A stretch of DNA of 64,000 bases from Amphiscolops sp. MND2022. Its lineage: Eukaryota. The translations under genes were made by a program, and so were the position numbers. A model generated the notes under the pieces. That model did not search any database. It had not been told where the DNA came from and saw only the letters and a list, made by a program, of their open reading frames with translations. The DNA lies in the NCBI GenBank assembly GCA_964187785.1, contig OZ076409.1:2916001-2980000 (forward strand), in the 5' to 3' direction. This document shows positions 3,560 through 4,064 of this stretch, one piece after another (the first letter of the stretch is position 1; each line of letters opens with the position of its first letter).

Positions 3560-4064
3560 CTACTCTACAATAATAAAACCACCCAACTCCGCCAACTTCT
3601 TTATCACCATCCGGCGACGTCCATTATTAAAAAATATCACGGTCTGTCGTTTGCCGCAATTCCCTAATTTCTTATAACCCTCATGGCAGGCCCGCAACTG
3701 CTCGATAATCATTTCACCTTGAGGGGTGAGAAGAACTGGCATCCACTGAAACAAAATACAGTCTTTCTAACAAACAGAACAAGAAGAATTCATCTTTTCT
3801 TCCAACGGCACAATTTATCCTGATTTATTATAGCACAGCACAAGAACGAACAAATTAACGAAAAGTGGAACAACTCACATTGGGACCAACACCACATATG
3901 ACTGTGAGGGTTGCGTCCAAGCGGGGGCTCCAAGCAATCTCGACCGGGACCCGAGGATCAATTACGGGCTTCCTCAGGTCCTCCCTTAGCGCTGCTAAGT
4001 CCTCAATTTCTGGGAGGTGGAGAAATTCCTCCCACATCTCCCCAACAATAGTGTTTGGATCCAT
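3560..4064 (-). CDS. Predicted two-exon antisense accessory gene, 123 aa (exons 4064-3879 and 3745-3560)
   Basis: ATG at 4064; donor AAT|GTGAGT at 3878; acceptor TTTTGTTTCAG|TGG at 3746. The 133-nt intron is phase 0 and joins MDPN...GPN to WMPV...IVE*. A second acceptor TTTTTCAG lies 10 nt upstream of the ATG. Confidence 0.65.

Follow-up and report, generated by a model that had tools for sequence, protein, structure and literature searches.

Does the strand opposite to the coding strand of this retroelement carry a spliced gene of its own, directly behind pol? A sequence-only reading of the window, the whole stretch of 64,000 nucleotides analysed here, had joined two short minus-strand reading frames through an intron into a protein of 123 amino acids. 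Distant relatives retain both the protein sequence and the predicted splice points; this is therefore likely to be a real accessory gene, and it is very probable that a conserved antisense gene exists and is spliced as predicted.

The element and the gene model

The 5' end of the element lies outside the window and its 3' end is closed by an LTR-like tandem pair. The pol gene (3-3473, plus strand) is open over 1156 codons and runs off the window start; Pfam places the end of the reverse transcriptase, RNase H and integrase in it in that order. An env-like frame of 701 codons (7255-9360, plus strand) belongs to the Monjiviricetes fusion glycoprotein family PF24664 (E 2e-37) and is 42% identical to env in a related locus, L003. 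It is followed by an uninterrupted ORF with a TRAF/MATH domain (PF21355, E 3e-22) and a coiled-coil-like N-terminal part (9799-10821, plus strand), which is likely a captured host signalling adaptor. This ORF is absent in L003, which has other coiled-coil ORFs at that place. Judged by the order of the pol domains and the env-like gene downstream, the element is an envelope-bearing member of the Ty3/gypsy group (Metaviridae). Its class of env and the TRAF/MATH ORF suggest that the host is an animal.

Repeat comparison identified the closing pair as two tandem copies of 1961 bp with 99.9% identity (11130-15054, plus strand), whose LTR borders are not fixed; they represent either a tandem LTR or an assembly duplication. 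Standing head to tail, the copies contain an internal array of 88 nt as well as CRE-like TGACGTCA, CCAAT and TATA motifs. Of 3015 candidates in the search for relatives of pol, those at E up to 1e-40 form 53 protein clusters, none of them named and some with hundreds of members, and the pol scans gave 0/1 and 0/53 in viral contigs and 0/29 in prokaryote genomes.

The antisense frame of 123 codons is composed of an exon at 4064-3879, a GT-AG intron of 133 nt and an exon at 3745-3560, all on the minus strand. When the sequence was rechecked, the coordinates, reading frame and protein length first proposed proved exact. Exon 1 starts with the ATG at 4064 and is stop-free over 186 nt (62 codons); together with 10 nt of leader following an upstream acceptor it covers 3879-4074. 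The predicted intron (3878-3746) is in phase 0, starts with GTGAGT and ends with TTTTGTTTCAG. Exon 2 has 61 codons and a TAG, which is 86 nt from the pol stop. The exons are also richer in GC (53.8% and 45.2%) than their flanks (29.1% and 38.2%), as had been claimed, and the intron has 33.8%.

An additional acceptor reported 10 nt before the ATG is likewise present (TTTTCAG, ending at 4075). The original description as a two-exon gene holds for the coding exons but not for the predicted transcript, which likely has at least three exons with an untranslated leader before this acceptor. The nearest predicted donor is a GTGAGT at 4388, giving a candidate 5' UTR intron of 314 nt (4075-4388, minus strand) with a parallel in the related locus L001, and the alternative is a predicted GTAAGT donor at 4628 (554 nt). 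The candidate leader exon or exons and a putative internal promoter would be found at 4389-4760 (minus strand), where there is no in-frame ATG upstream of either donor. At the other end, a candidate polyadenylation region (3520-3548, minus strand) has the variant signal AATATA at 3548 and then a GT-rich run; L001 has AATAAA at the matching place. On the plus strand, an AATAAA at 3514, 41 nt after the pol stop, is a possible sense polyadenylation signal facing the end of the antisense gene.

The remaining interval up to env contains several other features. A 105-nt pair with 125-nt spacing (4670-4899) lies upstream of the antisense donors, and a 64-nt unit containing TATAAATA occurs in five spaced copies before env (6219-6881); both are possible promoter or enhancer arrays. 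Short sense frames at 5352-5595 and a 134-codon ORF at 5729-6133 (plus strand) have no Pfam match; they may be additional small exons or represent the sense side of a divergent promoter. After env, a 155-codon ORF (9380-9847, plus strand) has a weak match (E 0.002) to the post-env ORF of L003 (10284-10415).

When dinucleotide shuffles of the pol-env interval (3474-7254) were searched with strict splice sites, a spliced frame of at least 123 codons was found in 11/1000, five of them with the frame on the minus strand; with loose splice sites the number was 154/1000. Such a frame is also present in one (strict) or two (loose) of seven flanking tiles of the window. The sequence pattern alone is uncommon and suggestive, not decisive, and the case is carried by the homologues. 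A plus-strand frame of 177 codons (3859-4392) without Pfam match overlaps exon 1 and was treated as a shadow. An origin of the two 186-nt exons by tandem duplication was rejected (hhalign 0.1%; the best of 25 pairwise tests was reached in 14/1000 shuffles).

Homologues of the two exons

Gene callers that are blind to introns extend exon 1 as far as the first intronic stop, and this read-through was used as query. Five clusters among nine candidates were found, with 16 proteins in total, and 15 of the 16 share the start M-D-x-N/D-T. P0058, in which the first 20 residues differ, was excluded from the exon-1 identity table. All 17 exon-1 rows (the window and the 16 proteins) have G-P-x, then V, then S (n=7) or G (n=10). 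The V-S/G read-through is best explained as translation of a donor of GT-purine-purine-G type, the splice site being read here from amino acids. The window and subfamily B are identical at 54/62 positions before the donor and at 3/7 after it, and the read-through tails past the donor vary from 2 to 31 residues with frames that shift even within one subfamily.

Exon 2 had four hits among 1.84 billion representative proteins: P0071 (83% identity), P0072 (57%), P0073 (39%) and a chance match, the repeat-rich protein P0074 of 1060 amino acids (E 1.8e-4), which was discarded. In P0072, its cluster mate P0083 and P0073, which all extend upstream, the match starts at F-Q-W (3/3). This is the translation of TTT CAG TGG, the same as in the read-through frame of the window itself. 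P0071, P0081, P0082 and P0073 end at the same stop residue as the window, and the last 12 residues of the domain are missing from P0072 and P0083. Exon 2 needs an upstream start because the methionine at its second codon is retained neither in P0073 nor in P0070, the distant homologue encoded in L001. The sequence-only reading had proposed conservation of frame and splice sites as its own check, and at the protein level the gene passes it, with the donor kept in every exon-1 row, the acceptor in every exon-2 homologue that extends upstream, and an uninterrupted homologue behind pol in the distant element L001.

All three members of the P0071 cluster come from contigs equal in size to the source contigs of three exon-1 proteins, and therefore both exons most likely travel together. 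No such contig partner was found among the 16 exon-1 proteins for P0072, P0083 and P0073, and comparison of the source contigs of the exon homologues with 45 of the 899 listed pol cluster members and the 53 representatives gave no pairing. The exon homologues are known from proteins alone, and the position behind pol is seen for the window and L001. The retrieved proteins, 16 for exon 1 and 6 for exon 2, stand against pol clusters with 168-415 members; gene callers seldom annotate frames as short as these exons. Among proteins of 110-2000 amino acids, exon 1 matched no annotated spliced product (0/122 candidates). The exon-1 alignment scan confirmed 0/598 pattern matches in the metagenome and 0/138 in viral contigs, and the family alignment scan of viral contigs 0/19.

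The type of amino acid change differs between levels of comparison. The window differs from subfamily B by 18 changes with a mean BLOSUM62 score of +1.0, and the 21 changes private to copies within subfamilies a mean of -0.62. Neutral simulations reached the between-subfamily score in 23-26/3000 runs for exon 1 and 16-21/3000 for exon 2. Identity between subfamilies is 83-87%, with conservative changes. As read from protein sequences only, in a retrieval biased towards copies whose frames are intact, the contrast matches purifying selection while lineages replicate and free decay of copies once they are inserted.

A distant homologue and the protein family

Among 295 pattern matches in contigs of metagenomes, alignment with pol retrieved six related loci. 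L001, with a pol that is 53% identical, has a single uninterrupted minus-strand ORF of 184 residues (P0070, L001:3231-3794) situated 320 nt behind pol. The last 64 residues of P0070 (121-184) align with exon 2 from the first to the last residue (28% identity) and end at the same stop residue. A profile of exon 2 built without L001 ranked L001:3231-3794 first among 2847 frames (E 0.0002; the next had 0.97), and P0073 forms a bridge between exon 2 and P0070 (score 90, 0/1000 shuffles). Across the intron position P0070 reads G-P-Q-W and the window G-P-N, intron, W; the DNA of L001 has no AG there. All seven members of the P0070 cluster are 184 amino acids long.

The 5' anatomy of L001 follows the same plan as acceptor 4075 with donors 4388 and 4628 in the window. 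The acceptor TTTTTGCAG stands 1 nt before the ATG and a GTAAGT donor 222 nt upstream, which would make a GT-AG intron in the 5' UTR. The predictions further include a leader without ATG, an AT-rich stretch with TATA-like boxes, and AATAAA downstream of the stop. Two sense ORFs (74 and at least 66 codons, no family match) at L001 4262-4684 (plus strand) diverge from the AT-rich TATA-like stretch, and their place beyond it suggests a divergent promoter. The anatomy of L001 points to a start of the antisense transcript that is internal to the element, as far as such signals can be predicted.

The gene is present in one of the six related loci, and the other five are without it or end too early. 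In L003, pol is followed by env within about 350 nt and the antisense gene is absent. L005 has no match within about 800 nt behind pol, and the remaining three loci end in pol or just after it. The gene would therefore be dispensable for the wider lineage.

The relationship between the N-terminal parts is less clear. No significant similarity was found between exon 1 and residues 1-120 of P0070 (305/3000 shuffles were as good in a junction-anchored comparison; hhalign 0.1%), and the low-confidence models differ, with a beta hairpin in exon 1 and a helix in P0070. In addition, the phase-0 intron coincides precisely with the boundary of the conserved domain. All this would be expected if exon 2 is a conserved module joined to unrelated N-terminal parts in each lineage, with the intron as a mark of exon shuffling; the splice would then be real, but exon 1 would not be the counterpart of the first half of P0070. 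Such an origin, which is compatible with either of the functions considered below, is plausible without being probable. Against it stand the G and P at the third and second positions ahead of the junction W, invariant in 17/17 exon-1 rows and 7/7 members of the P0070 cluster, and a pattern F-L-(6)-D-(4)-R, noticed post hoc, that is found 49 and 51 residues before the same W.

The protein has no hydrophobic, transmembrane or signal segment (the best 19-residue Kyte-Doolittle mean is <1.0). Exon 1 is acidic, with 12 D+E and 5 K+R, and exon 2, which encodes the conserved domain of the family, is basic, with 10 K+R and 5 D+E; in P0070 the first 60 residues include 17 acidic and no basic ones. There is no leucine zipper, with at most two leucines in four heptad positions, and the basic clusters are short.

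No Pfam family was found for either exon (E up to 0.1) or for P0070 (E up to 1), and neither the exons nor P0070 match Transposase_28 (PF04195, the TRP28 of Retand). Searches gave 0 hits among PDB sequences at E up to 10, no usable hit in the ESM Atlas for exon 1 or exon 2, and 0 Rfam matches over 3000-16000. The model of P0070 (mean pLDDT 50.8, pTM 0.44) has an N-terminus that is acidic, rich in proline and of low confidence, followed by six helices that begin at residue 76. Fold searches with this low-confidence model gave no Z>=5 among 48,161 chains (best Z 4.6, rmsd 3.5 over 73 residues) and nothing in BFVD at E up to 0.001. The absence of a fold match does not show that the fold is new; the family itself is not represented in Pfam, PDB or the searched clusters of the ESM Atlas.

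Function and relation to known antisense genes

The minus-strand mRNA would start upstream of 4388 or 4628 from an internal antisense promoter, lose the 5' UTR intron and the 133-nt intron to give leader-exon 1-exon 2, and end about 30 nt past the stop, short of pol. Both introns would persist through transposition, since the packaged plus-strand RNA presents only their reverse complement to the spliceosome. This is the established logic of antisense-intron reporters, in which an intron is retained since the RNA to be copied has the opposite polarity, and it agrees with the absence of interruptions in the MATH ORF on the sense strand. The protein would consist of an acidic, partner-binding N-terminal half and a basic, helical C-terminal domain, a layout that is also that of a small transcription or RNA-export regulator.

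This charge layout, together with analogy to GENE23 of maize Grande and HBZ of HTLV-1, makes nuclear regulation of the element a reasonable suggestion for the job of the gene. Provided that the gene model is right, we give it an even chance, and a nuclear role is about equally balanced against one in counter-defence or assembly. The complete proposal of an accessory gene with an internal promoter and a 123-residue soluble nuclear regulator of the element's own expression falls somewhat below an even chance.

A gene that is real and spliced could instead encode a protein that counters host defences or serves particle assembly and does not act on transcription of the element, for instance a suppressor of silencing or signalling working alongside the TRAF/MATH protein. 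All the conservation evidence fits this equally well, and the MATH domain carried by the element is a host signalling adaptor fold. Patchy presence among relatives is typical of host-interaction genes, and the antisense gene was found in only one of the six related loci. The changes between subfamilies, however, are conservative and not radical, and no similarity to known suppressors was found in Pfam, in PDB sequences or by fold searches. We consider a role of this kind less likely than not.

It is improbable that the locus is a host gene fragment captured backwards with its introns kept, either as a passenger or acting mainly as an antisense RNA that dampens the genomic RNA. The antisense orientation would preserve introns in such a fragment and the sense-strand MATH ORF is uninterrupted, and the available text of one source considers roles of antisense RNA for micropia, among others (PMC7264820). 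The constraint at the protein level down to 28% identity argues against capture, as does the lack of a cellular homologue among the representative proteins searched, where the four hits were three family members and one chance match. A chance arrangement of frames and splice signals, or a shadow of the 177-codon plus-strand frame, is strongly disfavoured and very improbable: the loose-site shuffles and one or two flanking tiles do give such frames and the plus-strand frame does exist, but exon 2 has homologues in the minus frame at 28-57% identity outside the extent of that frame, the changes are conservative in the minus frame, and the plus frame has no Pfam match.

Plant and fungal Gypsy elements are already known to carry antisense genes behind pol, and deltaretroviruses to carry spliced antisense genes. 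In plant Ty3/gypsy elements, additional antisense ORFs between pol and the 3' LTR are termed aORF-3R and are described in the available text of two papers for maize Grande (gene23), rice RIRE2 and Retand (PMC7264820, PMC11963269). According to the former, the GENE23 product is nuclear and gene23 has its own upstream promoter. The antisense gene in the window fits the description of an aORF-3R, with a position between pol and the 3' LTR-like end (behind pol in L001) and conservation like that of element proteins. As in the plant genes described there, it is antisense to gag-pol, is kept in copies, has no cellular homologue and has no assigned function. The plant aORF-3R mostly encode TRP28, in these accounts, whereas the window protein matches no Pfam family. 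The gene in the window is further distinguished by its place between pol and a class III env and by its predicted coding and 5' UTR introns; the aORF-3R belong to plant elements, and the word "intron" has 0 occurrences in the main text of both papers. An additional antisense gene behind pol, brtn, is reported for Boty-like Gypsy elements of Botrytis cinerea (Zhao et al. 2011, as cited in the available text of PMC7264820 and PMC8365987). It resembles the gene in the window, by description only, as an antisense gene behind pol in a Ty3/gypsy element from outside plants. The Boty-like elements are described as fungal and chromoviral and as lacking env, whereas the element in the window bears env.

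HBZ of HTLV-1, APH-2 of HTLV-2 and AS1/AS2 of BLV are encoded by spliced antisense transcripts that start in the 3' LTR, according to the available text of PMC10186651. HBZ was the precedent named in the sequence-only reading and is an apt analogue for splicing on the antisense strand, but gene23 of Grande, Retand and brtn of Boty are closer. By analogy, the shared features are an env-bearing retroelement, an antisense gene that is spliced (by prediction in the window), introns that survive reverse transcription and a small product. Unlike in HBZ, the nearest donors in the window are internal to the element, at 0.3-0.6 kb upstream and some 6.5 kb away from the LTR-like repeat, and the window protein has no bZIP or bZIP-like domain such as those of HBZ and APH.

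Env-carrying Ty3/gypsy elements of animals include errantiviruses with an env of HSV/gB type (PMC13524379), Tor of Oikopleura (PMC4402516) and bdelloid elements with extra ORFs (PMC5408684), as described in the available parts of these papers. The order of reverse transcriptase, RNase H and integrase, a class III-type env and extra ORFs after pol are common to them and the window element, and an internal promoter near the pol-env junction is described for Tor3b/4b (PMC4402516). No antisense coding gene in an animal Ty3/gypsy element was found in the literature searched, which covered listings, the openings of abstracts and the available text of these three papers. The word "antisense" has 0 occurrences in the main text of PMC13524379.

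Antisense accessory genes have so far been ascribed to deltaretroviruses and to plant and fungal Gypsy elements, and the window extends this design to a third setting, a conserved and predicted-spliced gene between pol and env in what is apparently an animal envelope-bearing Gypsy element. Repeat annotation based on ORFs misses such genes, in which each exon has only about 60 codons. A far-reaching reading, which we regard as unlikely in its entirety, is that an envelope-bearing animal Ty3/gypsy lineage has acquired the organisation of a complex retrovirus independently of vertebrate retroviruses. Between pol and env, a divergent internal promoter would then drive an antisense regulator with several exons, which would belong to a new protein family and be the functional parallel of HBZ; the coding intron would have been gained or lost within the element, something the normal plus-strand copying cycle cannot do. 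The pair of an intron-bearing and an intronless homologue offers a natural case for intron gain and loss in a gene that is copied only as its reverse complement.

Other retroelements are present elsewhere in the window. A second Gypsy element (54253-63831, plus strand) has a single gag-pol frame of 3192 codons, in which the last several hundred residues have no Pfam match at E 0.001, and a third (42426-48333, minus strand) has identical LTRs of 208 nt and gag-pol in several frames. At 25375-34655, identical direct repeats of 628 nt and 153 nt flank about 8 kb with a 460-codon ORF without Pfam family. Parts of this region recur at 51700-54319, and it is possibly a non-autonomous LTR element.
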